Shown one piece after another: positions 96 through 28,004 of a DNA stretch of 64,000 nt (positions within the stretch are counted from its first letter, which is position 1; every line of letters begins with the position of its first letter). This DNA comes from an archaeon. Lineage in GTDB: Archaea; Micrarchaeota; Micrarchaeia; Anstonellales; Anstonellaceae. Where the stretch lies: the NCBI GenBank assembly GCA_020056635.1, contig JAGVHI010000016.1, positions 4,702 through 68,701 of the forward strand. The letters run 5' to 3'. The notes under the pieces were generated by a model that was given only the letters and a program-made list of their open reading frames with translations, had not been told where the DNA came from and made no database searches. The position numbers and the translations under genes were made by a program.

Positions 96-2147
96 ATGAA
101 AGTTCGCGAGATGGAGTTGTACTCCGAAAAGGTGAAGGAGGATGACATCCGAAACCTGCTTGGGCAGATAGTCAAATCCCGGCTTCCCCTATTCGGCTTC
201 CTGGACTTTTCCGACCTCTTCTCATTCAATTACGTGAACCTCATAATCACGCGCAAGAACAATACTGTAAAGTTCTTCGTGAAGGAGCGCAGGCATTTGC
301 ACAACCTATCCGCTCTGCTTTTCCCGTTCAAGCTCTCCGAGCCAACAGAAGTGCAGTACGCAAAAGCCCCAATCTCAATCCCCCCACGCTTCTACATACT
401 CGGGGGAAAGCACGATTTCCTTGATTTCATGCTTAAGGAAAACGTTCTTGAGCTGCACCTTCACCTCTCGCGCTTTTTGGGCGGCGATTTTTCAATCGGC
501 TCAGCCACTTACGAGAACGGGCGCAAGGGCGTAATAATAGTCCCCAACCCCTCCCGCTTCCTGGTTGTCGACCTTGAGAAGAACCCCTCAATATACATTG
601 AATTGCTCGAGCCAATCCCCAAGCGCATGTCCACCACCTCGCGCTTCCCGGCATTCGAGGAAACCGGAATGACTTTGGGCGTTGACAATTACGACCCTTT
701 CCAGCACTCGATGGTGGTGGGAGCATCCGGAACAGGGAAAAGCAAGGCGCTCTACATCATCCTTCGCGCCATGGAGGAGATGCACAAGGATGGCGTGCGC
801 ATGATAATACTCGACCCGCACGGCGAGTTCGCGCGCATGTACAAGCACCGCGCAAAAATCGTGAATTTCATCGATAATTACGTTGAGCCCCTTGACATGG
901 GCGGGAACAAGACCCCGCTTATGACCCAGCTTATCGCGCAACTTGTTTCAAGCACAATAGGGCAGGAGAACAAGTACTCGGAGCGCGTGCTGTTCTATGC
1001 AGTGCACCTGCTCACCTCAATTGAGAAGCTCGACCTTTCCAATATAGCGGCCCTGCTCACGGACTCTTCAGTCCGCGCTGAATTCGTCTCCTCATGCGAC
1101 AATGATGAAGTGAAGAGATTTTTTGATGAGGAGTTCAACGACATCTACATCCACCACTTCAATGACGCCATACTCCCTATTCTCAATTTCGTAGGGGAAT
1201 ACAAACTGTACTTGGGGAAGCAGATGAAGCAGGAGAGCCTGCTTTCGCTGCTTCGCACCAACCGCGTCACAGTGGTCTCATTCGACCCGCACTTTTTTGG
1301 AAAGCGCATGATTTCTTTCCTTGCAGGCGCAATCATAAACCAGATGTACATCCTTGCAATCACTGGCCAGATTCAGGACAAGCCAACTATACTTGCGATT
1401 GATGAGTTCTCCCGCGTGGAGACAAAGGTCACAAAGGACATATTGGTTGAAACGCGCAAATTCAACCTCTACCTTTACATGTCGGTCCAATACCTCAATC
1501 AGCTCTCAAAAGAGGTATACGATTCCATCATAGGGAACGTGCGCAACATAGTGGCATTCAAGCTCTCGCGCCAGGATGCCACTTCAATTTCCTCGATAAT
1601 GGAAATCAAGATTGAGGAGTTCTTCAAGAAGAGCCGCTCGCAAACAGAACTGGAAGAATCAAAGAAGGAGATGTTCGTCCGGCTTCACCAGCGCGAGTGC
1701 ATAGTCCGCTTCTTTGACGGGAAGAAATACATGCTGCCCATGAAAGTGCGGGCTGTGGATGCGAAGAAATGGGGCTGGAACGAGAGCATGGAGGTAAAGG
1801 AGTCCCGCGAGGTAACAGATTCGGAATCCCCCTTCCCGCCGCCTAAAGGGCCATCGCAAGGTGGAAGGGTTGTTCCAAGCGAGCAACCTCCATTGCAGCA
1901 AGCGGGGCGGGCCGAGCCAAATGAGCAACCTCCACCGCAGCAAGTGGCTCGTACTCCTGCGCAAGCTGCACAGCACCCGGGAGCCAGTTCGCACGCACCT
2001 GCAGCGCAAGAACCCCCTCCAACCAAGGTGCGCGTTTCTCCTCCAGCTTCGGGAGAGCAGGGCTCGCCATTCCACAGGCTCAAAGACGCGCACGAGGGCG
2101 GGCACTCAAGGCTGCCAAGCGCGCTAAGGAAGAAGAAGGATGAGTAA
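96..2147 (+). CDS. HerA/FtsK-type (DUF87-like) P-loop ATPase with an unknown ~200-aa N-terminal domain and a Pro/Gln-rich C-terminal tail
   Basis: 683-aa ORF. Walker A GASGTGKS (nt 720-743) is followed by ILDPHGEF. Walker B-like ILAIDEFSRV and ETRKFNLYLYMSVQ are present. The tail is low-complexity (SEQPPLQQ / NEQPPPQQ). Confidence 0.7.
   Translation: MKVREMELYSEKVKEDDIRNLLGQIVKSRLPLFGFLDFSDLFSFNYVNLIITRKNNTVKFFVKERRHLHNLSALLFPFKLSEPTEVQYAKAPISIPPRFYILGGKHDFLDFMLKENVLELHLHLSRFLGGDFSIGSATYENGRKGVIIVPNPSRFLVVDLEKNPSIYIELLEPIPKRMSTTSRFPAFEETGMTLGVDNYDPFQHSMVVGASGTGKSKALYIILRAMEEMHKDGVRMIILDPHGEFARMYKHRAKIVNFIDNYVEPLDMGGNKTPLMTQLIAQLVSSTIGQENKYSERVLFYAVHLLTSIEKLDLSNIAALLTDSSVRAEFVSSCDNDEVKRFFDEEFNDIYIHHFNDAILPILNFVGEYKLYLGKQMKQESLLSLLRTNRVTVVSFDPHFFGKRMISFLAGAIINQMYILAITGQIQDKPTILAIDEFSRVETKVTKDILVETRKFNLYLYMSVQYLNQLSKEVYDSIIGNVRNIVAFKLSRQDATSISSIMEIKIEEFFKKSRSQTELEESKKEMFVRLHQRECIVRFFDGKKYMLPMKVRAVDAKKWGWNESMEVKESREVTDSESPFPPPKGPSQGGRVVPSEQPPLQQAGRAEPNEQPPPQQVARTPAQAAQHPGASSHAPAAQEPPPTKVRVSPPASGEQGSPFHRLKDAHEGGHSRLPSALRKKKDE
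1881..1944 (+). repeat. Imperfect 22-nt direct repeat (period 42 nt) encoding the EQPPxQQ tail repeats
   Basis: gagcaacctccattgcagcaag (1881-1902) versus gagcaacctccaccgcagcaag (1923-1944), with 2 mismatches. Confidence 0.8.
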
Positions 2148-3720
2148 TAACATGCCTTCGCAGACATACGATTTGCTCAACCGCGCATGGAAATCGACTA
2201 GCAAAGTGATTTTCGGCGAACCGCTTGGCGAGTTGGCTGATTATGAGGAATGGCTCTCGCAGCTCCAGGGCAAAATGCGCGTTGAAACCTCCTCGATTTC
2301 CGGAAAGCCTGTCTATTTCGCGTTAAACGACTATTGCAAGGATGCGAAATTCCTAAGCTTTGACGAAGTAAAGCCCAGTGCAAAGTACGAGCCTCTCAAT
2401 ATCAACGAGATTAAGGACATCGATTCCATCCTGAATGGCTTGAGGGAGCAGTTCGAATACACAGGAAACCGCTTTCTTGGGAACAGCAATTTTGTCGAAT
2501 CATCCGACATAGTGCTCGATTCTCAGTTCATCTATAACTCCACGAACATTGAACAGTCCTCCTACATTTACTCCTCATACATGATGCGGAGGGGCAGCAA
2601 GCACGTTTTCGGCTCAGGCTGGACCGCAAATGGGGAATTCCTGCTTCGAGTTGTTGCAGGAATCGATATCCACCGGTGCTTTGAATCGCACTTCATAGGC
2701 GAATCAAGCGACCTTTTCTTCTGCTTCAACTGCAACGGATGCCACAACATGCTGTTCTCATTTGGCCAGAGGAACAAGGGCCATCTGATCGGCAACCTCG
2801 CATTACCGAAAGACAAATTTGCGGAACTCAAAGCAAAGCTATTGAGCGAGGCATTCACTCAGCTCAGAGCTGACAAGCGCTTTCCCTCCCTTTTTCAGCT
2901 TGTTCCCAACAAAACCCCAACTGCGCTTCCGAAATTGGCTGCTTCGAAATTGGAACATGGCGACATGCGGCCAATAGAAAAAGGCTTTTCCTCAACTTAT
3001 GAGGTAATGCTGAAACGAAAACCCATAAGCATAACCGCGCTTGAAAGCTGGCTTGGCAACCACACTGTCAGGCTTGCGGAAGCACGGACCCCATTTGGCG
3101 ACGAAACATATACCCCTCTCAATCACGGCATAATATCAGAAATGCCAAACAAGCGGCTTGTGACTATCGAGGAATCGTTCGAGCTTGGCAAAATAGCCCT
3201 TGATGAAACGTCAATTTCATCACTGGATAAAATAATTGGCGCACTTGATAAAATTGCATTCTTCAGCGCGGAATTCATAACAGGCGAGAACCATAACATA
3301 ATAAAATCGCCCCTCCTGCTCAGCAGCGCCAACATATACAAGGGATATGAAGCGACTTATTCCGAAAACACAGGTCTAACCTCCCTTTCCCTGCACTCGA
3401 AAAATGTTTATGGCTGCCACCGGATAATAGAATCCCAGTTCTGCCTCAAATGCTACAATTCCCTTTACCTGAACCGGTGCTTCGAGCTTGATGCCTGCCT
3501 AAAATGCGCAGACTCCTACTTCTGCCACAATTCCGAAGCATTGGGCGATTGCATGTTCTGCTTCAATGCAAAGGGAAAGAGGCACGCAATAGGAAACAAT
3601 GAGCTTGAGCTTGTAAAATACAAATCTGTAAAGGATTCTGTGCTTGAGCAAATAGCAGATGAGCTTGAGAAAAAGAAATCGCTCCACTACGACATTTTCA
3701 ACATAGGTGCCAAAGGCTAA
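2140..3720 (+). CDS. Cysteine-rich repeat protein A (unknown family; two copies of a ~240-aa module)
   Basis: 526-aa ORF whose start overlaps the ATPase stop by 8 nt. Motifs include CFESHFIGESSDLFFCFNCNGC...LFSFGQRNKGHLIGN and CLKCYNSLYLNRCFELDACLKCADSYFCHNSEALGDCMFCFNAKGKRHAIGN. It is a clear paralog of the next ORF. Confidence 0.75.
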   Translation: MSNNMPSQTYDLLNRAWKSTSKVIFGEPLGELADYEEWLSQLQGKMRVETSSISGKPVYFALNDYCKDAKFLSFDEVKPSAKYEPLNINEIKDIDSILNGLREQFEYTGNRFLGNSNFVESSDIVLDSQFIYNSTNIEQSSYIYSSYMMRRGSKHVFGSGWTANGEFLLRVVAGIDIHRCFESHFIGESSDLFFCFNCNGCHNMLFSFGQRNKGHLIGNLALPKDKFAELKAKLLSEAFTQLRADKRFPSLFQLVPNKTPTALPKLAASKLEHGDMRPIEKGFSSTYEVMLKRKPISITALESWLGNHTVRLAEARTPFGDETYTPLNHGIISEMPNKRLVTIEESFELGKIALDETSISSLDKIIGALDKIAFFSAEFITGENHNIIKSPLLLSSANIYKGYEATYSENTGLTSLSLHSKNVYGCHRIIESQFCLKCYNSLYLNRCFELDACLKCADSYFCHNSEALGDCMFCFNAKGKRHAIGNNELELVKYKSVKDSVLEQIADELEKKKSLHYDIFNIGAKG

Positions 3721-3723
3721 ACC

Positions 3724-5274
3724 ATGGACATAAACGGCGCGTTCAAACGCACTTTCAAGCTCATATTTGGGCAGTGCAACCTCGAGTTGGATGACCTCAA
3801 GGAATACCTTTTGAGCTACCAGCCCCCTTTTGTAATGAGGAAATCAAGCCTCTCAGGCAAGCAGGTCGCACTCTGCAACGGCAACTACCCGGCTTCTGCA
3901 AAATTCATCTCAGAAGATGAAATCGATTTCAATAAGAAATTTAACCCGCTTGGAATAAACGAAATAAAAGACATGGATTCGCTTGTTGCGGCTGCCCGAG
4001 AGCGGCTCTATTACGCAGGGAACAAGGTGCTTGGGAACTCCAATTTCGTGACAGAGTCTGACACCTGCTTCGACCTCTCATTTTCGAAATACGGGCACAA
4101 CAACATCTCCTCAAAATACATTGCCTATTCCTCCTACATCCGAAGCAATTCCTCCTTCATTTTCGGGGGCTGCTACATGGGCCGCTCAAGCCACGCAATC
4201 CACTCAAGCGCGTTCGTGGATTCCACGCGGTGCTTCGAATCCTACATGACCTACAACTCCTCTGACATGTTCGCCTGCTATAATTGCAGGGGCTGCACGC
4301 AGACAATGTTCTCATTCAACCTGCGGAACAAGAAATACTGCATAGGCAATCTCGAGCTTCCCAAGGAAAAATACCTTGCGATAAGGGAAAAGCTCGTCTC
4401 GGAAAGCAGGGAATACATAGAGAAAAACAGGAAATTCTACCCTGTTTTCAGCCTCAATCTGTGTGCGCCGCGGACTGGTGCCCTATCCATTCCAGCTCTC
4501 AAATCTGAAACCACAGACCCTGCCCCAATAGACTTGGCTTTCAAAAAAACCTGCAACATTCTTTTTGGGCACGAAATCGGCCCTCTGCAACAGTACGAAA
4601 AATTCCTCTCAAAGCGCATTGGTGAAATTGAGCGCCACAAATCGGTTTTCGGGAACGAAACCACTCTTCCCCCTATGTTTTTCTATGCTCATCTCCCAAG
4701 GGGCAGGCTGTTAAATGCGCAGGAGGCAGAGGTAGCAGGAAAAATAAGCATGGACGAAGAGAAACTAAATGGCCTTGGGACCCTGCTCCAAAACCTCGGG
4801 AAAATTGCGCTCTACCCATCCGAGCTAAGGCTTGGGGAAAACCGCAATCTCATCGAAACCCCATTTGCAATAGATGCAGTAAGCGCATACAAATGCCCGA
4901 ACATTTCCTACTCGAAGAACTGCGGCTGCTCTTTTGCGAACAACTGCGAGAGCGTTTTCGGCTGCTACCGCTCAGTCTATTCCACTTTCTGCATAAGGTG
5001 CTTCTTCGCAACAGGGCTTACCCGCTGCTCTGAGTGCGACGCGTGCGAGAAATGCTCGGACTGCTACTTCTGCCACAATTGCGAGAACCTTCAGGACTGC
5101 ATCCTTTGCTTCAATGCAAAAAACCTGCGCTATGCAATCGGGAACGCAGAGGTCGGAAAGGAGAAATACCTTGAATTCAAGGCAAGATTGCAGGGCTGGA
5201 GTGCCTTATCGCTTGAGCGGGAAAAAGACCTCAAGCACGATATTTTCAACATCGGAAGCAAACAGGCTCAGTAG
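3724..5274 (+). CDS. Cysteine-rich repeat protein B (paralog of 2140..3720)
   Basis: 516-aa ORF starting 3 nt after the previous stop, with the same two-module layout. It carries a seven-Cys C-x2-C ladder, CSECDACEKCSDCYFCHNC (nt 5026-5082). The C-terminus DIFNIGSK is shared with protein A (DIFNIGAK). Confidence 0.75.
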   Translation: MDINGAFKRTFKLIFGQCNLELDDLKEYLLSYQPPFVMRKSSLSGKQVALCNGNYPASAKFISEDEIDFNKKFNPLGINEIKDMDSLVAAARERLYYAGNKVLGNSNFVTESDTCFDLSFSKYGHNNISSKYIAYSSYIRSNSSFIFGGCYMGRSSHAIHSSAFVDSTRCFESYMTYNSSDMFACYNCRGCTQTMFSFNLRNKKYCIGNLELPKEKYLAIREKLVSESREYIEKNRKFYPVFSLNLCAPRTGALSIPALKSETTDPAPIDLAFKKTCNILFGHEIGPLQQYEKFLSKRIGEIERHKSVFGNETTLPPMFFYAHLPRGRLLNAQEAEVAGKISMDEEKLNGLGTLLQNLGKIALYPSELRLGENRNLIETPFAIDAVSAYKCPNISYSKNCGCSFANNCESVFGCYRSVYSTFCIRCFFATGLTRCSECDACEKCSDCYFCHNCENLQDCILCFNAKNLRYAIGNAEVGKEKYLEFKARLQGWSALSLEREKDLKHDIFNIGSKQAQ

Positions 5275-6910: not shown

Positions 6911-9733
6911 CTATTCTACAAATGCGAAGTAATTCTGGCGCGCTGTAGTCAGGAGTTCCTGGTTCGCAGAGCAGAATTGCTGGCTTAAGCACGGGAAAGG
7001 CAGGAACGCATCATTCTCCTGCGATAATGGCCCGACAAAATTGCCCCCTCCATACTTCAGGTATTCGTTCACAAGCAAAAAGAACTCCCGGATATTTTTG
7101 CGCGCAGCCCCCTGCCTTGCCTTCTCCTGTTCCGAATCGGCAGCGCCTGGCAGCCCATACTCGGCAAACATTGATTCGAAAAGTTTCGCATCCGAGGTAA
7201 TCTGGCCAAGCGCCATGCCATTTACGCTTGCATCAAGCATCCCAATTGACATGCAAAGCTCCCTGCAGAACTCGGCGGTCTTCGGGCCCAGCTGCCCATC
7301 TATCCTAAAGCCGGAACCTGAAATCCTTTCCAAATCCATGCTCACATAAGGGCTTTGCGAAAGCATGCAGAGGTTCTGCTGGAAAACTGCGGCCTGGGTG
7401 CGTGAAATCCCCTTATTATAGGAAAATACCGCGGTAAACGACACATCCTCAGGTGACGGTATTCGAACTGGCGAGCCGGATTCCGCCTCCACCCTTGTCC
7501 TGTCCACCACGCTTCTCAAATCCAGCGAAAAGCGCAGGTATGCAAAGTAAAGCTGCATCCGGTCGCTTGAGAGAATGTCCCCAACAACCTTCTCGCGCTT
7601 TTTTTGCGCATCCAATGCCGGGTTCCAATTTTCAATCACATTCCTTACTCCCTTTTCCTTGCCTGTGGCAGACAGGAGCTGTGCAAGCTCCACCTCAGCC
7701 TCCACGCGCTTTGCTGCAGGAAGCGCGTTCCTGTTTGCAAGGTGATCCAAATATTCAATGGTCTGCCTTACGCCCACTTGGAATATCCCGATGCTGTTTG
7801 GCAGCTTTTTCCCATGCCCTGCACGCTCCGAAACGTCATCCGCAATATTGTCTACCCACCTGTCCGGAAGCAGGCTGTATGCAATATTGTATAGGACATC
7901 CAGCCCGACCCGCTTTCCCAGCGACGAATAATATTCGTTGAACAGGACGGTTTTTAGCGCCCCTGTGATTGGGGCAGGTATCCCCATCTCCTTTGCATAG
8001 CGCGAAATGTCCTCTGCTTTCGATTCGAACCTGCTTGTGGCCCACCACCTCGAAATCGACATCCTGCCTGCGGTGCTTTGGGGCGTTTTTGCAGGGTTTC
8101 CCTCCAGATTGAATGTTATGTCCGGCACAATCCCTGGGAAAGTCGGCACCCGGAGCGTGACTATGAAATCTATCGAGCGGTGGGCGACCGCCTGCTTGAA
8201 ATTGAAATTCTTGGCCATGTTCTGCCTTGCCACTTCCGGAAAAATGGCCTCGAACGGCATGTTGAGCTTGCCTGACAGCCTGCGCGCAAAATCAACAGGC
8301 GAGAGCGAAAGCCTCTCGGGCAGCGCCCCCGCATCATCCTGCTCTGTGTACGCATCCCGGACCACGAATGTTTGGTTCACTGCAGGCGCAAACCTCTCAA
8401 AGCGCGGCACAAAAAGCCTGCTGTCCTCCTGTATTGTGAACTGGCCCAGCACCAATTTCTCCTTTCCATACCCTTTGAAAAATTTCTGCAGCTCAAGCAT
8501 GTTTGAAAAGTCGAATTCACGGTACCTCATCCCAAAAACATCCGCGTATTTCCCATCCCCGAGGCAGACCATCGCGTGCGTTATCCCTCTTTCAATTCCC
8601 GTCCCGGTCCTCTCGTTCCGCACGGTCAGTATGGAACCCCTTGGGGCAGGCAAGAGCTGAGCGCGCAGGGCTTTCCAGGCTGCGGCATTTGCTATTGTCC
8701 CGTCCCAGTTTGTTTCTGCCCAAATCCGCTGCTGCTCGAACATCGGCTCGCGCAGCACAGCAATGTAGCCTGGGGAGGGCGGCTGTGCATCCATCTGTTC
8801 ATACGGCCTCCCAAAATGATGGTAAACGTTTGTCGAAAGCCCTTTTTCCGCAAGCATGGCATAGAACATCGCCATCACGCCAGATGAGCACCATGCAGCC
8901 TCGTTCCTGCGCTCCGCCCTCCTCACCTTTGCATCCTCCTCGTAAAAATGTGTCATCACTCCAACCGAATCTGCAAATGGCTGGCTTGAAGGAGACTCAA
9001 AGAACCTCCTTCTCACCTGTATCTGGAGCGGCGGGCGGGCAATGTTCAGCTCCGCATATCCTTCCGGCGGCTTGGTGCGAAGGATCTTCTCCCTATCCAT
9101 AGCCTCGAGCCGTGAGCGCGTGGCGCCTATTTCATGTGCAAGCGCTTCAAGCGACGGGTACTCATTCTGAGTGTTGTAATCATATACTGAGCCCACTCCG
9201 CTTCCGCCGTCCCCAATAAGCCGCACCACCCTGCTTCCAGTCCCTTTTTTTGTGCTGTAAACAAGAACCCTGTTGCCATCATCCCAAAACTCATCATCAG
9301 TCCCAAAGAACTTGGTTTTTTTCGGGCTTGGGAGTGCAAATAGCTTTGGGGCAATCGAACGCCCTGCGCTTCCACCTCCCCCATGCCACGCAACCCCTGC
9401 ATCTGCCCGCTGCACAGGCTGCCTAACTTTTGCAGGCACGTACTCCTCAAGCTTTGCAAGTGCCAGCCTGCCCTCCTTTCCCGGGATATATTTTGCACCA
9501 AGCCTTGCCAGAAGTGCATCCACTGAGGAAAAAACGAATTTTTCGCTTCCCGCCTCTTTGAGGTTGAAATCAAGCACGGTGCCATCGCCATTAACCCTTA
9601 TGATGTGCCTGCCTTCCCTGCCCTTAAACGAGTACCTAAGCACATGGAGCGCTTCGTCCCCCCCCATTATTTCAGCCTGGAGTTCGTTGGGTATGTACAG
9701 CGCTTTTTTGCCCTGGGCGGCTTCCTGTGCCAA
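6911..9733 (-). CDS. Large multidomain protein: tandem N-terminal ~75-aa repeats, NlpC/P60-like Cys/His peptidase motifs, SLT-like lytic transglycosylase motifs and a PG-binding-like motif
   Basis: 940-aa ORF. Motifs are WCSSGV (Cys282, nt 8888-8890), THAMVCLGDGKYADV (His386), LFNEYYS, SIGIFQVG, FSYNKG and IDGQLGPKT. It is a paralog of 11291..14512. A GAGGTGGTG SD-like element lies upstream. Confidence 0.75.
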   Translation of the reverse strand: MAQEAAQGKKALYIPNELQAEIMGGDEALHVLRYSFKGREGRHIIRVNGDGTVLDFNLKEAGSEKFVFSSVDALLARLGAKYIPGKEGRLALAKLEEYVPAKVRQPVQRADAGVAWHGGGGSAGRSIAPKLFALPSPKKTKFFGTDDEFWDDGNRVLVYSTKKGTGSRVVRLIGDGGSGVGSVYDYNTQNEYPSLEALAHEIGATRSRLEAMDREKILRTKPPEGYAELNIARPPLQIQVRRRFFESPSSQPFADSVGVMTHFYEEDAKVRRAERRNEAAWCSSGVMAMFYAMLAEKGLSTNVYHHFGRPYEQMDAQPPSPGYIAVLREPMFEQQRIWAETNWDGTIANAAAWKALRAQLLPAPRGSILTVRNERTGTGIERGITHAMVCLGDGKYADVFGMRYREFDFSNMLELQKFFKGYGKEKLVLGQFTIQEDSRLFVPRFERFAPAVNQTFVVRDAYTEQDDAGALPERLSLSPVDFARRLSGKLNMPFEAIFPEVARQNMAKNFNFKQAVAHRSIDFIVTLRVPTFPGIVPDITFNLEGNPAKTPQSTAGRMSISRWWATSRFESKAEDISRYAKEMGIPAPITGALKTVLFNEYYSSLGKRVGLDVLYNIAYSLLPDRWVDNIADDVSERAGHGKKLPNSIGIFQVGVRQTIEYLDHLANRNALPAAKRVEAEVELAQLLSATGKEKGVRNVIENWNPALDAQKKREKVVGDILSSDRMQLYFAYLRFSLDLRSVVDRTRVEAESGSPVRIPSPEDVSFTAVFSYNKGISRTQAAVFQQNLCMLSQSPYVSMDLERISGSGFRIDGQLGPKTAEFCRELCMSIGMLDASVNGMALGQITSDAKLFESMFAEYGLPGAADSEQEKARQGAARKNIREFFLLVNEYLKYGGGNFVGPLSQENDAFLPFPCLSQQFCSANQELLTTARQNYFAFVE
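7379..8011 (-). other. SLT (family 1 lytic transglycosylase)-like region of the 940-aa protein
   Basis: NEYYS (candidate E-S motif), GIFQ (compare GLMQ) and SYNKG (compare AYNxG) occur in the canonical order. Confidence 0.55.
8504..8926 (-). other. NlpC/P60 (papain-fold)-like region of the 940-aa protein
   Basis: Cys in the W-C-S-S-G context and His in the H-A-M-V-x-L-G-D-G-K context are about 100 aa apart. This matches the order and spacing of NlpC/P60/CHAP catalytic residues. Confidence 0.55.
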
Positions 9734-9776
9734 AAAACCACCACCTCACTTACCTTCATTCCAATTATTCTTCCAG

Positions 9777-11204
9777 CTAACCTTTCACCACTCCAATCGG
9801 GACCAGTTTCGCAACCATATCGGAAATGCCAGCAGCCTGCACAGACGCCACAACCATGTTCACATCCTTGTAAGCGCCTGGCGCCTCTTCCGCAATCAAA
9901 TCGTACTCCGTCGCCTTGATTATGATTCCTTTTGCGAGCAGTTCCTCCTGCACCTGCTTGCCGGTCCAGGAATGCACTGCCTTGCTCCTGCTCATTGTCC
10001 TGCCGCTCCCGTGGCAGGATGAGCCAAACGATTGCTTCATCGCCCCTTCCTTCCCAACCATCACGTAGGATGCGGTCCCCATGCTCCCGGGAATCATCAC
10101 AGGCTGCCCAATCGCCCTATAAATATCAGGAACCTCCTTTCTCCCGGCCGCAAACGCGCGTGTAGCCCCCTTCCTGTGCACACACACTTTCTTCATTTTC
10201 CCCTCGACCTCATGCTCCTCGAATTTTGCAATATTGTGGCACACATCGTACAGCATTTCCATCCTGTCGCCCGTGCCATTCCCGAAAACAGAGTCAAACG
10301 TTTCCCTTACCCAGTGCGCCATTATGTGCCTGTTGCAGAACGCATAATTCACCGCGCACCGCATCCCCTTCAAATACCGCTCCGCTTCCGGCGAATTGAT
10401 TGGCGCGCAGCACAATTCCCTATCCGCAAGATTGATTTTGTATTTTGATGCTGTCCCAATCATCGAGCGCAAACTGTCATCGCAAACCTGGTGCCCGAAT
10501 CCCCTTGACCCGCAGTGAATCATCACGGTCACTTCACCCTGCTCAAGCCCGAACGCCTTTGCCACTTCCGGGCTCTGGATTTCGCTAATCTCCTGAATCT
10601 CAAGGAAATGGTTCCCTGCCCCCAATGTCCCGAACTGCGGCGCGCCCCTCTTTTTCGCGGTATCGCTCACAACCAGAGGGTCCGCCCCATCTATTCTCCC
10701 GCCTTCCTCGCACCGCTTCCTGTCCTCCTCCCAGCCCCACCCTTTTGAGAGCGCCCATTCCACACCTTCAGTGGTTGCCTTCTCAAGCTCCTGTGGCGAG
10801 AGCCTCACCCTCCCCTTGCTCCCTACCCCAGATGGCACATTATCGAACAATTTGTTCACAAGCTCGCGCAGCTTCGGCCTTACGTCCTCTGCTTTCATTC
10901 CAGTTTTGAGCAATCTCACTCCGCAATTGATATCGTACCCTACTCCCCCAGGTGACACTACTCCTTCCTCCAAATCAAAAGCAGCCACCCCCCCAATCGG
11001 GAACCCATACCCCTCGTGGCAATCCGGCATCACCATTGCGTAATTGATAATTCCAGGAAGGGTTGCAACGTTGCGCAGCTGATTAAAGCTCCTATCCTTG
11101 CCCATCTGCTCGAAAAGCTCTTTTGTGGCAAACACGCGCGCAGGCACTCGCATTTCCCCTTCCTTTTCCAATTCCCAAACAGCATCCGCAATCTGCTTGA
11201 CCAT
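9777..11204 (-). CDS. rtcB: RNA-splicing ligase RtcB
   Basis: 475-aa ORF with RtcB hallmarks: PDCHEGYGFPIGGV, GYDINCGVR, GAGNHFLE, HCGSRGFGH, AVNYAFCNRH and SSCHGSGR. The length shows no intein. Confidence 0.95.
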   Translation of the reverse strand: MVKQIADAVWELEKEGEMRVPARVFATKELFEQMGKDRSFNQLRNVATLPGIINYAMVMPDCHEGYGFPIGGVAAFDLEEGVVSPGGVGYDINCGVRLLKTGMKAEDVRPKLRELVNKLFDNVPSGVGSKGRVRLSPQELEKATTEGVEWALSKGWGWEEDRKRCEEGGRIDGADPLVVSDTAKKRGAPQFGTLGAGNHFLEIQEISEIQSPEVAKAFGLEQGEVTVMIHCGSRGFGHQVCDDSLRSMIGTASKYKINLADRELCCAPINSPEAERYLKGMRCAVNYAFCNRHIMAHWVRETFDSVFGNGTGDRMEMLYDVCHNIAKFEEHEVEGKMKKVCVHRKGATRAFAAGRKEVPDIYRAIGQPVMIPGSMGTASYVMVGKEGAMKQSFGSSCHGSGRTMSRSKAVHSWTGKQVQEELLAKGIIIKATEYDLIAEEAPGAYKDVNMVVASVQAAGISDMVAKLVPIGVVKG

Positions 11205-11249
11205 GTGAAATCACCTTGAGTAGAACCAATCAGCTATTTCTCGCCCCTG

Positions 11250-11262
11250 TTTTATTAAATAA
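11250..11262 (-). promoter_or_regulatory. TATA-like box upstream of rtcB
   Basis: The minus strand reads TTATTTAATAAAA, 46-58 nt upstream of the rtcB ATG, inside the 86-nt spacer. Confidence 0.35.
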
Positions 11263-11290
11263 GGTGGATTGCCTGGGGCTGCGGTGTGGG

Positions 11291-14200
11291 CTACTGCAGC
11301 GGCTCGAGGTTGCTTGAGTACCTCACCAGCATGAAATAGTTCTGCCTTGCGGGCGTGAGTATTTCCGGGTGCGCATTGAGGAACAGGAAATCAAGGCACG
11401 ACCTGGGCTTAAATGGCGTAAACTCATTGAGCGCTTGCGCAGTTGGCGGCGCAGGGGGGCCGTGCACATCTGGCTGGGGCTCATACAGCCTTGAGACGGC
11501 CAGAACGCGCAAATACGCGTTCGCCTGGTCGAAAAACGCCCTGCCTTCGGCATCCACCAGTTTTTGCGCAGACGCAAGCGTGGGCTTTTTTTCCTCGCGT
11601 TGAGGGTCGTTTTTCATCCTCCCTTCCCAGTATCGTATTTCTTGCGTTAGCCGCTCGTTCGGGTCAAAAAGGTACTTGAACAGCGAGAGGTTCATGTCAT
11701 AAACACTATACTCTGTTCCATTCGCAGTCGTGAACTTAGCCATCCCCAGGTGCAGGCATACGTCCTTGAAAAGCGAGAAAGTCTTTTCCCCCAAATCGCC
11801 GTCAAGCTCGAACCCCCTTGCCGCCGCCCCCATATCCATCCGCAGCCGCTCGTCGCACGCAAGCGCGTACATGTTCTGCTGCAACACGGAATTGAAAGTT
11901 TTTTGAATGCCCTTATTGTACGCAAATGCTGCTGTGAATGATATGTCCTCCGCAGTCGGGATCTCATATACTCCATCTGCGCTTCTCATCGCGCTCCTGA
12001 CCCTCTCGCGCACATCATGCCTGTCCCTTTCATAGTGCCTGTAAGCAAAAAACAGCTGCATCCTGTCATCGTTTATGAAAGCATCGATTGCAATGTTCCT
12101 CTTCTCCTGGTATGCTGCATTCTTGTCCCAGGAGTATATCACGGCCTTGAGGTGCGCATCGCTCCCAGCCGCTTTTACCAGCGCCTCCTTCTCCTTATCC
12201 CCCATATTATCCAAATAGCGTATCACCCCAGTCATGCTTATCTGGAAAATCCCAAGCGTGTCGGGCAGCTTCCCATCATCCAGTTTCCGCGCGCCCCATT
12301 CAATCCATTTAGTTGGCACGATGTCCGAATCATGCGCCACAACATAGCCCAGGTCTTGTACGGTCCTTTTCCCAAATCCGGAATAATACTCATTATACAA
12401 TATGCCAAACAGCGACGGGAGCGCGCCAGAAGGGATGCCCATCTCCTTTGCAAGCCCCTCGAGCCTGTCCACCTTCGGCCTGAAAAACTTTTCCCAAAAA
12501 TTGTCCGCCGCGTTCCTGATTTTCCACCAGGTCTTAACCGCCACATCTGCGCTGCTGGCAGGGTCGCCCAAACCTGCCTTCGCAACCTCTCCCGCCTCAA
12601 TTTCTATGTGTGCATGCCTTCGTGCGAGCTCCCCATCATCGAACGCCAGGCTTGGGACCGGGCCCGAATAAGTCGGAACTTTCAGAGTCACCTGCAAATC
12701 CCGCGTTTTCTTCCAGCTCGCATCAGCCCAATCGAAGCCCTCTGGCAGGTTCTGCCTCACAACCTCCGGGAATACTGCCTCGAACGGCATGCGCAGCTTC
12801 TCCACTAGAGCCTGCGAAAAAGTGACGGGCGTCATCTTCCTCCCTGGCGCTACATCCTCTATTGTGAACGTCTCTTCCTTTGCTTCAGAGAATTTGTCCC
12901 ACCTAGGCACGTAAAAGAATGCATCCTTCGGAAGGTAGAAAAGGCTGCCTTTTCCGTCAATCTGCCCTTTGAAGAATTTTTTCACTTCCTTGATGCTTGA
13001 GAAATCAAACTCCCTGTACTCTATTCCGAACACATCCGCAAATTTCCCGTCCCCCAAGCTTATCATCGCATGCGATACTCCTTCAGCCCCGGAGCGGGTG
13101 TATGAGTACCTCACAGTGAGTATTGTGCCGCGCTTAGCGCCCTCAAGCTGCTTTCTTAAGCCCTCCCAATTCTCCTCAGTGAATTGCCCATCCTTGCCCT
13201 TGTCAACAACCTGCCCCCACGCATCCCGTTGTGCTTGAATTGGCACGTGAAAGAACATCTCCTCATTCAGGTTCTGCGCATAGCCCTCGACGGTTTTCCC
13301 ATCATCAGCAAGCTTCCTGTATGGCCTTCCAAAATTGTGGAACACATCTGTCGCAAGCCCTCTTTCAGCAACTATTCCGTAAAAAACGGCCATAACGCCC
13401 GAAGAGCACCAATAGCCCTGGTCCCTGCGCTCCATTGCCCGCGCCTTCTGGTCTTCAGTGTAATACCTCTTCATCGCAGCCAATCCGTCCTTCACGGGGT
13501 TCTTTGACGGCGGGATGACTGTGCGCATCTGCGGCCCTATAAATTCAGGCTTCGGTTTCGGAACCTCCTTGGGCTTTGGAACTTCAGGCAGCCCTTTTTT
13601 TCTTCTTTCATACTCCTCAGGCGACCAAGGGCCGACGTAGCCTTTCTCACCTGGCAGCACTGGCGGCTTTGGCAGCTTGCCTTCAGAGTAGGAAATCTTC
13701 TTCCCATCAAGCGGTTCAAGCCTCCCTTCTGCCGCCCCGATCCATTTTTTCAGCTCATCCACTGAGCCGAAATTCTTCTTCAAATTATAATCCCAAACAT
13801 CGCTTACCTTCCCTTTTTCGTCCTTGATAACCATCACTATCCTGCTTCCATCCCCATTCCTGGTCCGGTATACCAACACCTGGTTGTTCTTATCTTCTGT
13901 ATCCAAATCCCCTTCTTCGCCATAAAACCAGGTTTTTGCAGGTGATAAAAGCGGCTTTGGTGCTGGTGCCTGGGCTATACTCCCGCCAGATTGGCTCGAG
14001 CGCGTAGCCGGGCTGCTCCCATCCCCGCGGGTTGCAGGCGCCCTATCTGCTCTTCCGCCCTGTTGGCCTGGAGTTGGTGCAATTGCTTCCCCGTTCCTTG
14101 CAGGTACGAATCGGTTGAGGCTTACAAGCGCCCTCTCCTCCCGCCGCTCGGACACCACCCCGCCCTGCTCCTCCTTCACGTATGCCGCCCCAAGGTGCTT

Positions 14201-14512
14201 TCTCAACTCTTCAACCGACTTGAACTTGTATTTTTTGCTGCCTCCCCCCTGCGCGCGCAGGTTGTAGTCAACAATGGTGCCATCCTGCTCGATTTTCACC
14301 ACTCGCCTGCCCTTCCTACCTGAAAACTCGTATTCGAAGACCTTGAAGTTGCCCTCACCCTGCAGCACTTCCCTTTTGAACTCAGCCGGGATGAATAGGC
14401 GCCTGCCCCGCGCGCTTGCTTCGGTCAATTTTCCACCGGATAAATTGGGCTTTTCTCTCTTTATTAAGCTTCTCGAATCCCCTAAGTTAAGCTTATATCC
14501 CATCATTCCCAA
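11291..14512 (-). CDS. Large multidomain protein, paralog of 6911..9733 (N-terminal repeats, NlpC/P60-like, SLT-like and PG-binding-like motifs)
   Basis: 1073-aa ORF. Motifs are WCSSGV (Cys369, nt 13406-13408), SHAMISLGDGKFADV (His481), LYNEYYS, LGIFQIS, FAYNKG and LDGDLGEKT. The C-terminal ARQNYF motif is shared with the 940-aa paralog. Confidence 0.75.
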   Translation of the reverse strand: MGMMGYKLNLGDSRSLIKREKPNLSGGKLTEASARGRRLFIPAEFKREVLQGEGNFKVFEYEFSGRKGRRVVKIEQDGTIVDYNLRAQGGGSKKYKFKSVEELRKHLGAAYVKEEQGGVVSERREERALVSLNRFVPARNGEAIAPTPGQQGGRADRAPATRGDGSSPATRSSQSGGSIAQAPAPKPLLSPAKTWFYGEEGDLDTEDKNNQVLVYRTRNGDGSRIVMVIKDEKGKVSDVWDYNLKKNFGSVDELKKWIGAAEGRLEPLDGKKISYSEGKLPKPPVLPGEKGYVGPWSPEEYERRKKGLPEVPKPKEVPKPKPEFIGPQMRTVIPPSKNPVKDGLAAMKRYYTEDQKARAMERRDQGYWCSSGVMAVFYGIVAERGLATDVFHNFGRPYRKLADDGKTVEGYAQNLNEEMFFHVPIQAQRDAWGQVVDKGKDGQFTEENWEGLRKQLEGAKRGTILTVRYSYTRSGAEGVSHAMISLGDGKFADVFGIEYREFDFSSIKEVKKFFKGQIDGKGSLFYLPKDAFFYVPRWDKFSEAKEETFTIEDVAPGRKMTPVTFSQALVEKLRMPFEAVFPEVVRQNLPEGFDWADASWKKTRDLQVTLKVPTYSGPVPSLAFDDGELARRHAHIEIEAGEVAKAGLGDPASSADVAVKTWWKIRNAADNFWEKFFRPKVDRLEGLAKEMGIPSGALPSLFGILYNEYYSGFGKRTVQDLGYVVAHDSDIVPTKWIEWGARKLDDGKLPDTLGIFQISMTGVIRYLDNMGDKEKEALVKAAGSDAHLKAVIYSWDKNAAYQEKRNIAIDAFINDDRMQLFFAYRHYERDRHDVRERVRSAMRSADGVYEIPTAEDISFTAAFAYNKGIQKTFNSVLQQNMYALACDERLRMDMGAAARGFELDGDLGEKTFSLFKDVCLHLGMAKFTTANGTEYSVYDMNLSLFKYLFDPNERLTQEIRYWEGRMKNDPQREEKKPTLASAQKLVDAEGRAFFDQANAYLRVLAVSRLYEPQPDVHGPPAPPTAQALNEFTPFKPRSCLDFLFLNAHPEILTPARQNYFMLVRYSSNLEPLQ
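11888..12460 (-). other. SLT-like region of the 1073-aa protein
   Basis: NEYYS, GIFQ and AYNKG motifs in order. Confidence 0.55.
12998..13450 (-). other. NlpC/P60-like region of the 1073-aa protein
   Basis: Same Cys/His motif pair as the paralog. Confidence 0.55.
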
Positions 14513-16814: not shown

Positions 16815-17774
16815 TTATATCTCAGCATAGTGCATGTCGCTCCTGTTTTCGGAAAGCACGGCGCCCTGAAGCGCGAACCCCGATATTTCGGCTTTGCTCT
16901 TTGGCACTATGCTCTTGGAGCCGTCTTTTTTCACCACGAGCACCCCGTTCCACGGGCATTGTTTGCATCCGGGCACAAGGCTTATGCCTATCCTGCTTGT
17001 GTCGAATTGGACGTGGATGGACAGCCTCAGGGCATCCGGATACGCGTTTGTTATCAATTCCGAATGTGCGCTTGTTCTTGCGATAGATGAAAGGGTCAGC
17101 CTGTGCAAGGTCTGCTCCCCCTGTGCCAAATCCATAATATCGAGAATCGGCTGGAAATAGCCCCCTATCGTTCTTTTCAACCCATCGTACTGCGAACGCG
17201 TGCGGCAGTTCATCCTGATTGTTGGAATCCTCACGTCCTCTTCTTTGCGCAGGAACTCGGCAGCCCCTACGGTTATATTCACACGTTCCATCAATGCTTC
17301 AATTGGCACTCTCCGAAGCTTTTCAGCCATGCCCGGGATTTGTGCATCCATCTCTAAAATTATTTCATAAACGCCCCTTTCGAACCGCGCAACCGCGGCT
17401 TCCTCCAAGCCGAACGTGTTTCCGTTGTGGCTGACTTGGAACAAATCGAAAAAAACTCGGCTATCGGTCATTATGTGGACTTCGACGTTTTCCTCTACCA
17501 GAATTGCAAGGTTCCGCAGGCTTTCTGCTTCAGCCATGTCAGCGCGTTTGCAGTCTATCACCCTGTCCGGGTTTGGAGATTTGAACGGAAATGCGGGCAA
17601 CACGTAAGTTATTTTGCCGCCATGCGCAAGCTGCCGTTCCATGTTCACCCTAAGCGCCTCGAACTGTTTCTGCCTATGCGTCTGGTCGAAAGACCGCATA
17701 AGGGGCGATATTTTTTCGACCTGGCGCGTGATTAATGCTGCATTGCTCATTGACCCACCTATTATCATATACAT
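16815..17774 (-). CDS. PvcA/IsnA/Dit1-family protein (putative isonitrile synthase)
   Basis: 319-aa ORF. Motifs are VLPAFPFKSPN, ADMAEAESLRNL, IMTDSRVFFDL, ALRLSIHVQ, RIGISL and CPWNGVLVVKKDG, all in the order expected for PF05141-type proteins. The true start may be the internal Met at 17750. Confidence 0.65.
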   Translation of the reverse strand: MYMIIGGSMSNAALITRQVEKISPLMRSFDQTHRQKQFEALRVNMERQLAHGGKITYVLPAFPFKSPNPDRVIDCKRADMAEAESLRNLAILVEENVEVHIMTDSRVFFDLFQVSHNGNTFGLEEAAVARFERGVYEIILEMDAQIPGMAEKLRRVPIEALMERVNITVGAAEFLRKEEDVRIPTIRMNCRTRSQYDGLKRTIGGYFQPILDIMDLAQGEQTLHRLTLSSIARTSAHSELITNAYPDALRLSIHVQFDTSRIGISLVPGCKQCPWNGVLVVKKDGSKSIVPKSKAEISGFALQGAVLSENRSDMHYAEI

Positions 17775-17915
17775 TATTTATTTTGCTACCACATTATATT
17801 GTTCAGTGTTTATAAATATATCTTTATGTGTATTATAACAGAGATTCTGGTAAAACTATTTAAGCAGGAAAAAGGGAAGCATCTATCTACAAAACCAGTG
17901 GAAATGGATGTTATT
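17775..17915. promoter_or_regulatory. AT-rich divergent promoter region
   Basis: GTTTATAAATATATC (about 17806-17820) and other TATA-like runs lie between the divergent genes. Confidence 0.4.
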
Positions 17916-18422
17916 ATGAAAACGCAATTGGCCGCAATGATTGTGCTAACCATCCTTTTTGCGGGCTGCACCATCAACCCGCAGGATTTGGCGCCCAAGC
18001 TGCCGGCAAATAATTCTCCGCCGCAGAATGCCCGGGCTGCACAGCCGGGCCTTCAAAAGTCAAGCCAGATAACGCTTACCGCTGCAGAGGTTGCAAAGCA
18101 CAGCTCCGCATCCGACTGCTGGATGACAATAAGCGGAAAGGTGTACGACCTAAGTTCTTTCACAAACCACCCTGGCGGGTCTACATATGTCCCATACTGT
18201 GGAACTGCCGGAACAACTGGCTTCCAGACAAGGGGTGGCACTGGCACGCCCTCCGGTAACGCGGCGGCCATGCTCAGCAGCTATTACATAGGCGCGCTTG
18301 GGCAGACTGTGTTTTTGGGCACAGGCCAAACTGGTGCGGGCAGTGCAATTTCCCAAAATGGGAGTAACTCTGGCTTCGGCTACGGGGATGATGAGGACGG
18401 GTATGAAGGGGAAGACGACTAA
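17916..18422 (+). CDS. Cytochrome b5-like heme-binding domain lipoprotein (extracytoplasmic)
   Basis: Signal peptide plus lipobox MKTQLAAMIVLTILFAGC. The b5-like core is LTAAEVAKHSSASDCWMTISGKVYDLSSFTNHPGG. The C-terminal tail is acidic. The ORF track start at 17799 is probably too far upstream. A second axial His is not obvious. Confidence 0.7.
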   Translation: MKTQLAAMIVLTILFAGCTINPQDLAPKLPANNSPPQNARAAQPGLQKSSQITLTAAEVAKHSSASDCWMTISGKVYDLSSFTNHPGGSTYVPYCGTAGTTGFQTRGGTGTPSGNAAAMLSSYYIGALGQTVFLGTGQTGAGSAISQNGSNSGFGYGDDEDGYEGEDD

Positions 18423-26909: not shown

Positions 26910-28004
26910 TTATTTTACAAGTGTCATCTTTTTTGTTCGTGATATTCCATCAGCTTCGAATCTGTACAAATAAGTCCCGCTCGGAAGCCCGTCTGTTTTG
27001 AAAACTGTGCTATATCTCCCGGCAGTCTTCGTCCCATCCACGAGCGTTGCAACCCGCCTTCCAGTCACATCATAAACGCGAATCTTGACAAAGGCGCGCT
27101 TTGGAATCTCGTATTCAATAGTGGTCGTAGAATTGAACGGGTTCGGGTAATTCTGCTTAAGCTCTATTCCCGAAGGCAGCGCAAATGGGATCCTCCCAAC
27201 CGGCAGCCTTGCGGTCAATTCATTTGCCTGCAGCGTATCATGCACAAGAGTGCTCCAAGAGTATCTCCAAGGCTGCACACCCACTGCTTCCAATGCCGCC
27301 GAATCAATCAGGGAAAACGCCCAAGTGTTCCTGACTGCAACCAGCTCGCTCCCATTTGTGAATACTGCGTTCACTGGCATTCCCGCAATTGTCGTATCGA
27401 GGTTCACTGGCGGAAACCCGCTGGATGCCATGATTGAAATGAAATTCTCAAAGTTCCCGCACGGCGAAGGCATTGCCCAGCGCTGGCACGTGCTGTCCGC
27501 AATCCTCGCAGCCTCTGCCGAATCGCCAAGCGCTTCATCGAAAACTATGAATACGCCATAGCCCCTTGCAAGACCCACCCTTCTCTCCGCATCAGTGAAC
27601 GGTCCATCTTTCATTATCGCTTTGAGCGTGTCCCCGCACGTAGGATTATCTGGGTTATTGCCAGGCCATATCACCGCGCGCGCCATGAACGAAGGGTCAG
27701 GCCACACCCCATCAATCTCAACATGCTGGTAAACCCATATTGTGTCCTGGCCGTGCTCAAGGGCATAAATGGTCTGCTGCACATGCTGCTCCGAAGCAAA
27801 TGCAGAATGCAACTTGTCCACGAGCGGAACCAGCAGCATAAATGCCCCACCCGCAGCAAGCTTTCCAATGCCGCGCAATCCAGGCCCGTTCCTGAAGAAT
27901 TCGGAAATCCTACCTGGCATTTTCCTTTCAAATGCCCTTGCTTGCGCTGGCGCATTCGGGTTCTGGAAACTGTACGTTATCCTTTCCGAACTCATGTCCC
28001 TCAT
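26910..28004 (-). CDS. Membrane-anchored/secreted protein ending in a T9SS type-A (Por) C-terminal sorting-domain-like / FlgD-Ig-like module
   Basis: 364 aa with an N-terminal hydrophobic anchor, KLAAGGAFMLLVPLV. The last 84 aa are ELKQNYPNPFNSTTTIEYEIPKRAFVKIRVYDVTGRRVATLV...GTYLYRFEADGISRTKKMTLVK, ending exactly at the stop codon. The start overlaps the upstream stop by 4 nt. Confidence 0.8.
   Translation of the reverse strand: MRDMSSERITYSFQNPNAPAQARAFERKMPGRISEFFRNGPGLRGIGKLAAGGAFMLLVPLVDKLHSAFASEQHVQQTIYALEHGQDTIWVYQHVEIDGVWPDPSFMARAVIWPGNNPDNPTCGDTLKAIMKDGPFTDAERRVGLARGYGVFIVFDEALGDSAEAARIADSTCQRWAMPSPCGNFENFISIMASSGFPPVNLDTTIAGMPVNAVFTNGSELVAVRNTWAFSLIDSAALEAVGVQPWRYSWSTLVHDTLQANELTARLPVGRIPFALPSGIELKQNYPNPFNSTTTIEYEIPKRAFVKIRVYDVTGRRVATLVDGTKTAGRYSTVFKTDGLPSGTYLYRFEADGISRTKKMTLVK
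26913..27164 (-). other. T9SS-CTD-like terminal domain
   Basis: QNYPNPFN...VYD..GR.V..L.......G.Y...F......SG.Y.YR.......KKM.L.K pattern at the extreme C-terminus. Confidence 0.7.

Follow-up and report, generated by a model that had tools for sequence, protein, structure and literature searches.

Two paralogous proteins of a Micrarchaeota-type archaeon define a small family with a putative NlpC/P60-like cysteine hydrolase domain

Results

We analyzed a 64,000-nucleotide stretch of an archaeal contig (JAGVHI010000016.1 of assembly GCA_020056635.1, family Anstonellaceae; hereafter the window) that encodes two large proteins, A and B, with sequence motifs reminiscent of murein hydrolases. A first-pass annotation made from the DNA alone had described them as paralogues of about 1000 residues in an archaeal genome, sharing NlpC/P60-like, SLT-like and PG_binding_1-like motifs in that order. 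All of this held at the level of description. A and B are paralogous over their full lengths (34% identity over 1069 columns, BLASTP E 2e-180), and every quoted motif was found at the residues given for it in both proteins. In A these are WCSSGVMA (281-288), THAMVCLGDGKYADV (385-399), NEYYS (599-603), GIFQ (649-652), SYNKG (771-775) and IDGQLGPKT (811-819); the matching motifs of B lie, in order, at 368-375, 480-494, 707-711, 754-757, 864-868 and 903-911. The window is a piece of archaeal chromosome with genes for LonB, PAC2, RtcB, a GCD14/TrmI-type methyltransferase, an RPA-like OB-fold protein, NFACT, FEN1 and an A-type ATP synthase. The guanine-plus-cytosine (GC) content near A and B is unremarkable. 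The genes for B, RtcB and A follow one another on one strand with close spacing (Table 1).

Table 1. Features of the A/B locus and other genes of the window discussed in the text
Feature	Position	Strand	Residues	Description
Paralogue A	6911..9733	minus	940 aa	TTG start; two N-modules, linker, Cys/His domain, small helical domain, C-terminal alpha-helical domain
A, N-module copy 1	9460..9682	minus	~18-91	Four strands and a helix; no known family
A, N-module copy 2	9091..9304	minus	~144-214	
A, Cys/His domain	8354..8983	minus	~251-460	Probably papain-like, closest to NlpC/P60
A, middle domain	8099..8338	minus	~466-545	Small, conserved, helical; consensus TPxxFAxxLSxxYGIPFEYxxxEIxxQN
A, C-terminal domain part 1	7334..8023	minus	~571-800	E600 helix, low-confidence insertion, GIFQ hairpin, helical subdomain, SYNKG
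A, helix-loop-helix	7220..7333	minus	~801-838	IDGQLGPKT; PG_binding_1-like motif, weak Ku70 SAP-like match
A, conserved C-terminal tail	6914..7219	minus	~839-940	Consensus ...FF...L.Y.YL....LT.Y.KNYFFF
rtcB	9777..11204	minus		RNA ligase, between A and B; Pfam RtcB E 2.5e-174
Paralogue B	11291..14512	minus	1073 aa	TTG start; architecture of A with longer Pro/Lys-rich linkers
P-loop ATPase	96-2147	plus	683 aa	HerA/FtsK/TrwB-like (DUF87, E 4.6e-10); Pro/Gln-rich tail; ~5 kb from A
Cys-rich protein 1	2140-3720	plus	526 aa	Internally duplicated; repeated CxxC-type motifs
Cys-rich protein 2	3724-5274	plus	516 aa	Internally duplicated; repeated CxxC-type motifs; paralogue of the adjacent protein 1
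DIT1/PvcA-family protein	16815-17774	minus		Pyoverdine/dityrosine biosynthesis, isonitrile-synthase-like; E 6e-27
Cytochrome b5-domain protein	17799-18422	plus		Adjoins the DIT1/PvcA-family gene
Giant open reading frame 1	21548-26899	minus	1783 aa	Classic Sec signal peptide
Por_Secre_tail protein	26910-28004	minus	364 aa	C-terminal sorting-type domain (E 6.6e-10)
Giant open reading frame 2	28001-34084	minus	2027 aa	Classic Sec signal peptide
Transglut_core-like protein	46778-47764	plus	328 aa	Borderline: 22.4 bits, cut-off 23

Relatives of A and B are rare. An exhaustive HMMER scan of 1.84 billion representatives with a profile built from both proteins returned 22 proteins at E<=1e-3, nine of which reached E<=1e-10, and a word-indexed protein search returned A's own cluster only. 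The motifs are conserved across 20 further relatives and are therefore not chance features of one pair. The closer relatives (P0006-P0015, P0017, P0021, P0023 and P0024) share a plan in which one N-module and a low-complexity linker precede the Cys/His domain, which is followed by a small helical domain and then a C-terminal alpha-domain; some of them are standalone Cys/His or C-terminal-only proteins. Two relatives belong to genomes in GTDB, a Candidatus Micrarchaeota archaeon from Lac Pavin and the uncultured archaeon LFW-35, which is 'Ca. Anstonella stagnisolia' of the Anstonellales, Micrarchaeia (PMC8561730). The contig of another, P0007, encodes PolD. In LFW-35 (contig CABMCJ010000004.1), a gene for a standalone 237-aa Cys/His protein (L020, 1407-2120) is the immediate upstream neighbor of the gene for full-length P0006, which makes this a second genome with tandem paralogues of the family. 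Paralogues do cluster in this way; no conserved gene neighborhood was found across the loci examined, and a metagenome scan added two family loci with uninformative neighbors.

The remote relatives (P0018-P0020, P0022, P0025 and P0026) are bacterial, and public collections hold them translated with UGA read as Trp. We checked that reading on the DNA of three: P0020 (L015), P0022 (L004) and P0025 (L016), whose contigs are 30-39% GC. TGA codons account for 41 of the 47 Trp positions in P0022, 19 of 25 in P0020 and 25 of 31 in P0025; the contig of P0020 also encodes UvrC, GrpE, TrmD, Der, SSB and signal peptidase I. These in-frame TGAs fall on the family's near-invariant Gly columns, and at TGA columns the archaeal residue is Gly at 2.3 times background, which indicates that UGA encodes Gly (code 25). 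Reading UGA as Gly restored the motifs. It also revealed, in P0022, a PG_binding_1 domain fused to the Cys/His domain and scoring above the Pfam threshold (28 bits against a cut-off of 23, E 2.4e-6), an annotation that had been lost because UGA was mistranslated. To our knowledge, UGA=Gly occurs only in Gracilibacteria and Absconditabacteria, and the family is therefore restricted to two ultra-small symbiont lineages, one archaeal and one bacterial. We conclude that A and B belong to a small, previously undescribed family present only in Micrarchaeota-type DPANN archaea and UGA=Gly bacteria.

We looked for NlpC/P60, CHAP (PF05257), SLT and PG_binding_1 (PF01471) domains in libraries of known families. 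Pfam contained a match to none of the four for A and B (E<=1), for the archaeal proteins among 19 relatives (E<=0.01), for the hidden Markov model (HMM) consensus of every block (E<=10), or for the recoded P0020 and P0025. The same result was obtained with NCBIfam and PHROGs and with HMM and phmmer searches against all PDB sequences (E<=10). Foldseek comparisons of both AlphaFold2 (AF2) models with the PDB and BFVD produced nothing at E<=1e-3. The first-pass annotation had proposed a profile search as a check on itself and had declared beforehand that an empty result would count against it; no significant NlpC/P60 or SLT match was obtained. A second check that it proposed, conservation of the Cys, His and Glu residues, came out in its favor, as described next.

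In the Cys/His domain, C282 and H386 stand out as the sole invariant columns of an 18-sequence alignment that spans archaea and bacteria. The position 12 residues after the His (D398 in A) is occupied by D, E, Q or H in all members, and these are the residues that serve NlpC/P60 enzymes as the third catalytic residue. In the AF2 model (predicted local distance difference test score, pLDDT, mostly 82-96 in this domain), C282 is the first residue of a helix (282-296) and H386 starts a strand (386-392). A Cys at a helix N-terminus with a His at a strand start is, as modeled, the arrangement of the papain fold. We used hhalign to compare the domain with an alignment of genuine E. coli NlpC/P60 domains (YafL, MepS, NlpC and MepH) and obtained P 0.0028 over 52 columns, against P 0.2-0.9 in cross-controls; two of 100 column shuffles reached the score. 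The alignment pairs 'APxGTILTVRY...SHTMVSLGNGxWADN' with 'LxxGDLVFF...HVGIYxGNxQFIHA' so that H386 corresponds to the catalytic His and D398 to the third catalytic residue. Weak Foldseek matches (E 0.06-0.7) were enriched in papain-like enzymes, namely 3npf, 3pvq, 4r0k, 4xcm, 6biq, the endolysin 8tw1, the MCF effector and Josephin; the first five and the endolysin are of NlpC/P60 type, and their E-values of 0.1-0.6 are weak ones obtained with a 560-aa multi-domain model as the query. The domain also exists on its own, in P0013, P0021 and the 237-aa gene product encoded upstream of P0006. From sequence and predicted structure, the Cys/His domain is probably a papain-fold Cys-His-(Asp/Glu/Gln/His) hydrolase of a new family whose closest relatives are NlpC/P60 enzymes, and we infer that it belongs to their superfamily. 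The NlpC/P60 label of the first-pass annotation thus survives in the conserved residues, the papain-like model and the hhalign result, and falls short of a significant profile or fold match.

The second and third motif sets lie in a C-terminal domain that is modeled with confidence (pLDDT 81, predicted TM score 0.82). The fold is all-alpha apart from one small hairpin, which coincides exactly with GIFQ. E600 is conserved in every sequence that covers the column; in the model, the helix formed by residues 587-602 of A ends at this residue and a low-confidence insertion comes next. We compared the domain with an alignment of five genuine E. coli SLT domains. The AYNxG segment alone scored in hhalign (16-19 columns, P 0.06-0.08, a score reached by none of 100 shuffles), and neither global mode nor sub-optimal alignments of the SLT-like core yielded anything past it. 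Aligned alone, the Glu-helix block matched the 'AIAxQES' catalytic motif of SLT, and E600 was paired with the catalytic Glu. The match was weak (score 10.9, reached by none of 80 shuffles), and shuffled blocks cover the catalytic column by chance 17% of the time. Removing the insertion extended this alignment to place GxFQ on GLMQ, and the three matches (Glu helix, GxFQ and YNxG) are collinear. Foldseek searches of the C-terminal model returned all-alpha noise from the PDB (best E 2), in which MltF was the sole lytic transglycosylase (E 2.8-6.5, TM-score about 0.13), and all-alpha noise with no lytic transglycosylase from BFVD. The domain is compatible with a very divergent lysozyme-like core carrying two insertions and stops short of SLT membership. 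We regard the SLT resemblance as a suggestive, motif-level lead: the order of the motifs, the conserved E600 and the above-null local matches bear out the first-pass annotation, and the profile matches, fold matches and motif spacings do not. Catalysis by this domain is speculative.

The resemblance to PG_binding_1 is likewise suggestive at the motif level. The DGxxGxxT stretch scored 19.6 against genuine PG_binding_1 domains, with a null of 8.4 +/- 1.6 (hhalign, P 0.005, ~25 columns, reached by none of 60 shuffles). The same stretch weakly matched the Ku70 SAP domain (E 0.046). The short match agrees with the initial assignment of a PG-binding-like motif; A, B and the family consensus are without a Pfam match to it. 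We also observed a weak alignment (P 0.19) between the middle domain (YGIPFEYxxxEIxxQN) and the SLT columns matched by the Glu helix, with QN replacing ES; the middle domain may be a degenerate duplicate of the Glu-helix helix-turn-helix.

The three motif sets could be taken to describe a bifunctional murein lysin, in which an NlpC/P60 endopeptidase, a family-1 lytic transglycosylase and a PG-binding module let the archaeon break through the walls of bacteria that serve it as host or prey. We consider this a doubtful reading. All three sets are conserved family-wide, each scores above its shuffled null when compared with genuine domains, and the families that they point to are all murein-related. 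One bacterial relative has a genuine PG_binding_1 domain, MltF recurs among the weak Foldseek matches, and lytic transglycosylase (LT)-domain proteins of DPANN archaea have already been interpreted as anti-bacterial (PMC8204110, PMC9723730). Against this, profile and fold searches detect neither SLT nor PG_binding_1, the SLT match covers the 16-19 columns given above with atypical motif spacing, the proteins carry no export signal, and the bacterial relatives could simply remodel their own walls.

The same data can be read as describing a papain-like enzyme that is not directed at walls. Such an enzyme could be a protease, a transglutaminase, a deubiquitinase-like protein or an acyltransferase acting on proteins or lipids (host surface, S-layer or membrane lipids), with the C-terminal domain as a new binding or scaffold module and the SLT and PG motifs as coincidences. 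The fold evidence reaches 'papain-like' only, the MCF effector and Josephin rank with the NlpC/P60 enzymes, and the C-terminal domain has no structural match in the PDB or BFVD by Foldseek. The DGxxGxxT stretch matches Ku70 SAP about as well as PG_binding_1. The NlpC/P60 superfamily itself includes non-wall enzymes, such as the LRAT acyltransferases. We nevertheless think this reading unlikely. The His block fits the NlpC/P60-specific pattern 'GDLxF...HxGIYxGxGxFxH', the Cys/His domain is fused to PG_binding_1 in bacteria, and all three of the independent motif-level matches are to murein enzymes.

Both proteins had been described as having no N-terminal signal peptide and two tandem copies of an unrecognized ~75-aa domain in its place, and our analysis agrees. 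Neither has a signal peptide or transmembrane (TM) segment, with a maximum Kyte-Doolittle value of 1.2 in a 19-residue window. Extending the frames from stop to stop adds four codons to A and none to B, which leaves no room for a hidden upstream signal. The repeat within one protein is real but weak (BLASTP E ~1e-6). An HMM of 12 N-module sequences finds two copies each in A and B (independent E-values of 1e-18 to 1e-22, with the A and B sequences themselves in the model) and one copy per archaeal relative, and the module consensus has no Pfam match. The top Foldseek match, the tandem SH2 domains of SYK (E 0.03), was treated as noise, with the two small alpha/beta modules at the N-terminus as its source.

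Six archaeal family members terminate in a beta-sandwich of the Por_Secre_tail type, which is characteristic of surface proteins. Together with PG_binding_1 in bacterial relatives, these ends argue for an extracytoplasmic site of action, which the proteins may reach by a non-Sec route. The N-module is the obvious candidate for export, anchoring or recognition, although any particular export route is speculative. The missing signal peptides and TM segments could instead mean that the proteins are intracellular and have a cytoplasmic role, for example as regulatory proteases, and the close, same-strand arrangement of B, rtcB and A near a tRNA methyltransferase gene would suit such a role. We consider this very improbable given the Por_Secre_tail-type ends and the PG_binding_1 domain just described and the fact that linkage to rtcB is absent at all six other archaeal family loci examined. 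We rejected a functional tie to rtcB for the family as a whole, since the pairing is not conserved.

Other neighbors at the locus were considered as possible context. A prophage origin was rejected on the basis of no PHROGs match, no GC anomaly and housekeeping neighbors. A conjugation or type IV secretion system (T4SS) context was also rejected; the HerA/FtsK-like ATPase, the sole ATPase near A and B, is not linked to the family elsewhere. The two Cys-rich paralogues that follow the ATPase gene have no Pfam or NCBIfam match. Two ~255-aa homologs of this pair (E 1e-38 to 1e-45) are encoded directly upstream of P0009 on another archaeal contig (L022, 5884-7424), and the Cys-rich proteins are the sole neighbors that recur near the family.

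The window contains several further features of interest. The two giant open reading frames and the Por_Secre_tail protein between them form a probable surface-protein cluster of a DPANN cell. The DIT1/PvcA-family and cytochrome b5-domain proteins are both unusual in a reduced archaeal genome. The Transglut_core-like protein is a further candidate papain-like cysteine enzyme, besides A and B. Clustering at 90% identity groups the window's RtcB with a 947-aa member (P0004), twice the normal 475 aa; this length suggests that the RtcB of a related genome contains an intein or is a fusion. GC skew runs from -0.07 to -0.28 over 1-56 kb, except for a near-zero value (+0.02) at 36-38 kb, and turns to about +0.12 from 56 kb to the end of the window. 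The cumulative minimum lies near 56 kb, where gene orientation also changes, at the A-type ATP synthase cluster.

Discussion

We propose that in A, B and their relatives a divergent, NlpC/P60-like cysteine hydrolase, joined to an alpha-domain that may be lysozyme-like, acts on an envelope polymer at the interface between a symbiont and its partner. Our confidence in this proposal as a whole is evenly balanced. The catalytic heart would be a papain-fold hydrolase with Cys282, His386 and Asp398 (numbered as in A), most like NlpC/P60 amidases and endopeptidases. The small helical domain would come next, followed by the large alpha-helical domain with its helix-end Glu, G-x-F-Q hairpin and Y-N-x-G helix. 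This domain, which ends in the DGxxGxxT helix-loop-helix, is probably a very divergent, insertion-laden lysozyme/SLT-like or substrate-binding module. In the archaeal members, one or two novel ~75-residue N-modules would stand in place of a signal peptide. The enzyme most likely cuts a peptide or amide bond in a cell-envelope polymer where a small symbiont contacts another cell, and it would reach that polymer by a non-Sec route or be anchored or recognized via the N-module. The identity of the polymer, whether murein, pseudomurein or another envelope polymer, is speculative.

Several results weigh against this proposal. The missing significant matches to any known family in the libraries we searched are one. 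The hhalign probability is low for NlpC/P60 (11%) and about 1% for SLT, and the families used for these comparisons were picked after the motifs had been seen. The Cys-to-His distance of 104 aa is twice that of the E. coli NlpC/P60 domains, which amounts to ~50 extra residues. In A, 49 aa separate the Glu from GxFQ and 122 aa separate GxFQ from YNxG; the corresponding SLT distances are ~15 and ~60 (59 residues from GLMQ to YNAG in Slt70), so the spacings are 2-3 times canonical. No archaeal family member has a Sec signal or TM segment, while neighboring surface proteins of the same genome, the products of the two giant open reading frames and the Por_Secre_tail protein, do have them, classic Sec signals included. 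No conserved operon or secretion machinery was found at the family loci examined. Finally, murein synthesis is not known in archaea, and the Micrarchaeota that have been cultivated live with archaeal hosts that lack a wall.

The family bears on the question of how DPANN archaea attach to their hosts and draw resources from them. As a conserved, lineage-restricted and probably catalytic protein with an active-site hypothesis (Cys282, His386 and Asp398, plus Glu600), it is a concrete, testable candidate for an enzyme of the symbiont-host interface. The only other organisms with the family are recoded bacteria of the candidate phyla radiation (CPR). Standard annotation misses the family completely, and half of its bacterial relatives stand mistranslated in public collections.

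This distribution also permits a bolder scenario, which we consider quite improbable. The family might have been exchanged between Micrarchaeota-type DPANN archaea and UGA=Gly CPR bacteria and might serve as a contact-dependent, envelope-breaching effector delivered independently of Sec via the novel N-module. If so, the lysozyme/SLT superfamily would gain a new branch, rich in insertions and represented by the C-terminal domain. Some Micrarchaeota would then attack walled partners, such as bacteria or pseudomurein-bearing methanogens, rather than wall-less Thermoplasmatales.

We compared the proposed NlpC/P60-like hydrolase family with known systems. NlpC/P60 enzymes (PF00877; for example E. 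coli MepS/Spr and YafL and the gamma-D-Glu-diamino-acid endopeptidases 3npf and 4xcm) resemble it in that the Cys lies at the N-terminus of a helix, the His opens a strand and a polar third residue follows the His by 12 positions. The block 'G-[DT]-[LI]-L-x-[FV] ... H-x-x-[IV]-x-[LI]-G-[ND]-G-x-[FWY]-x-[HDEQ]' aligns between the two. The family differs in having no Pfam or PDB profile match, in the longer Cys-His segment and in the context of the Cys, which is 'HC[AS]xxA' or 'WCSSG' instead of 'DCSG'. Its Cys/His domain is also set in an archaeal protein of ~1000 aa that lacks a signal peptide.

Family-1 lytic transglycosylases (GH23; SLT, PF01464; Slt70, MltC, MltD, MltE and MltF) resemble the C-terminal domain in their motif order, with 'G-I-P...A-L...I-L-x-x-E-x-x-S', a G-x-[FM]-Q hairpin and an A/S-Y-N-x-G helix start. 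The Glu lies at a helix end in both, and the local alignments fall on the corresponding SLT columns. In contrast to these enzymes, the family goes undetected by Pfam, PDB HMM and Foldseek searches, and it has longer spacings, an extra well-folded helical subdomain and a family-specific 'AIFQQNLL' after YNxG.

LT-domain (GH23) proteins have been found in Woesearchaeota and Pacearchaeota and read as tools to bind or attack bacterial walls (PMC8204110, PMC9723730), and GH23 genes in DPANN were reported by Vigneron et al. 2022 (PMC9723730). Like the present family, those proteins are large, have putative wall-lytic domains and are viewed as tools for cell interaction. They are recognized by standard models and described as extracellular, whereas the family is unrecognized by standard models, centered on a Cys/His domain, without a signal peptide, found in Micrarchaeota and shared with code-25 bacteria. 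No indexed paper mentioned DPANN and NlpC together.

The first-pass annotation had also drawn an analogy to the cell-wall-piercing proteins of Gram-positive conjugation systems (PrgK/TraG type, SLT plus CHAP) and to phage tail lysins. These proteins and endolysins do combine a glycosidase-like and a cysteine-peptidase-like module in one polypeptide, as the family appears to do, and endolysins share with it the lack of a signal peptide. The analogy to PrgK/TraG did not hold beyond this point. The family lacks the N-terminal TM anchor and has the two domains in reversed order. No T4SS, other secretion-system or phage gene cluster surrounds it, and it has no PHROGs match.

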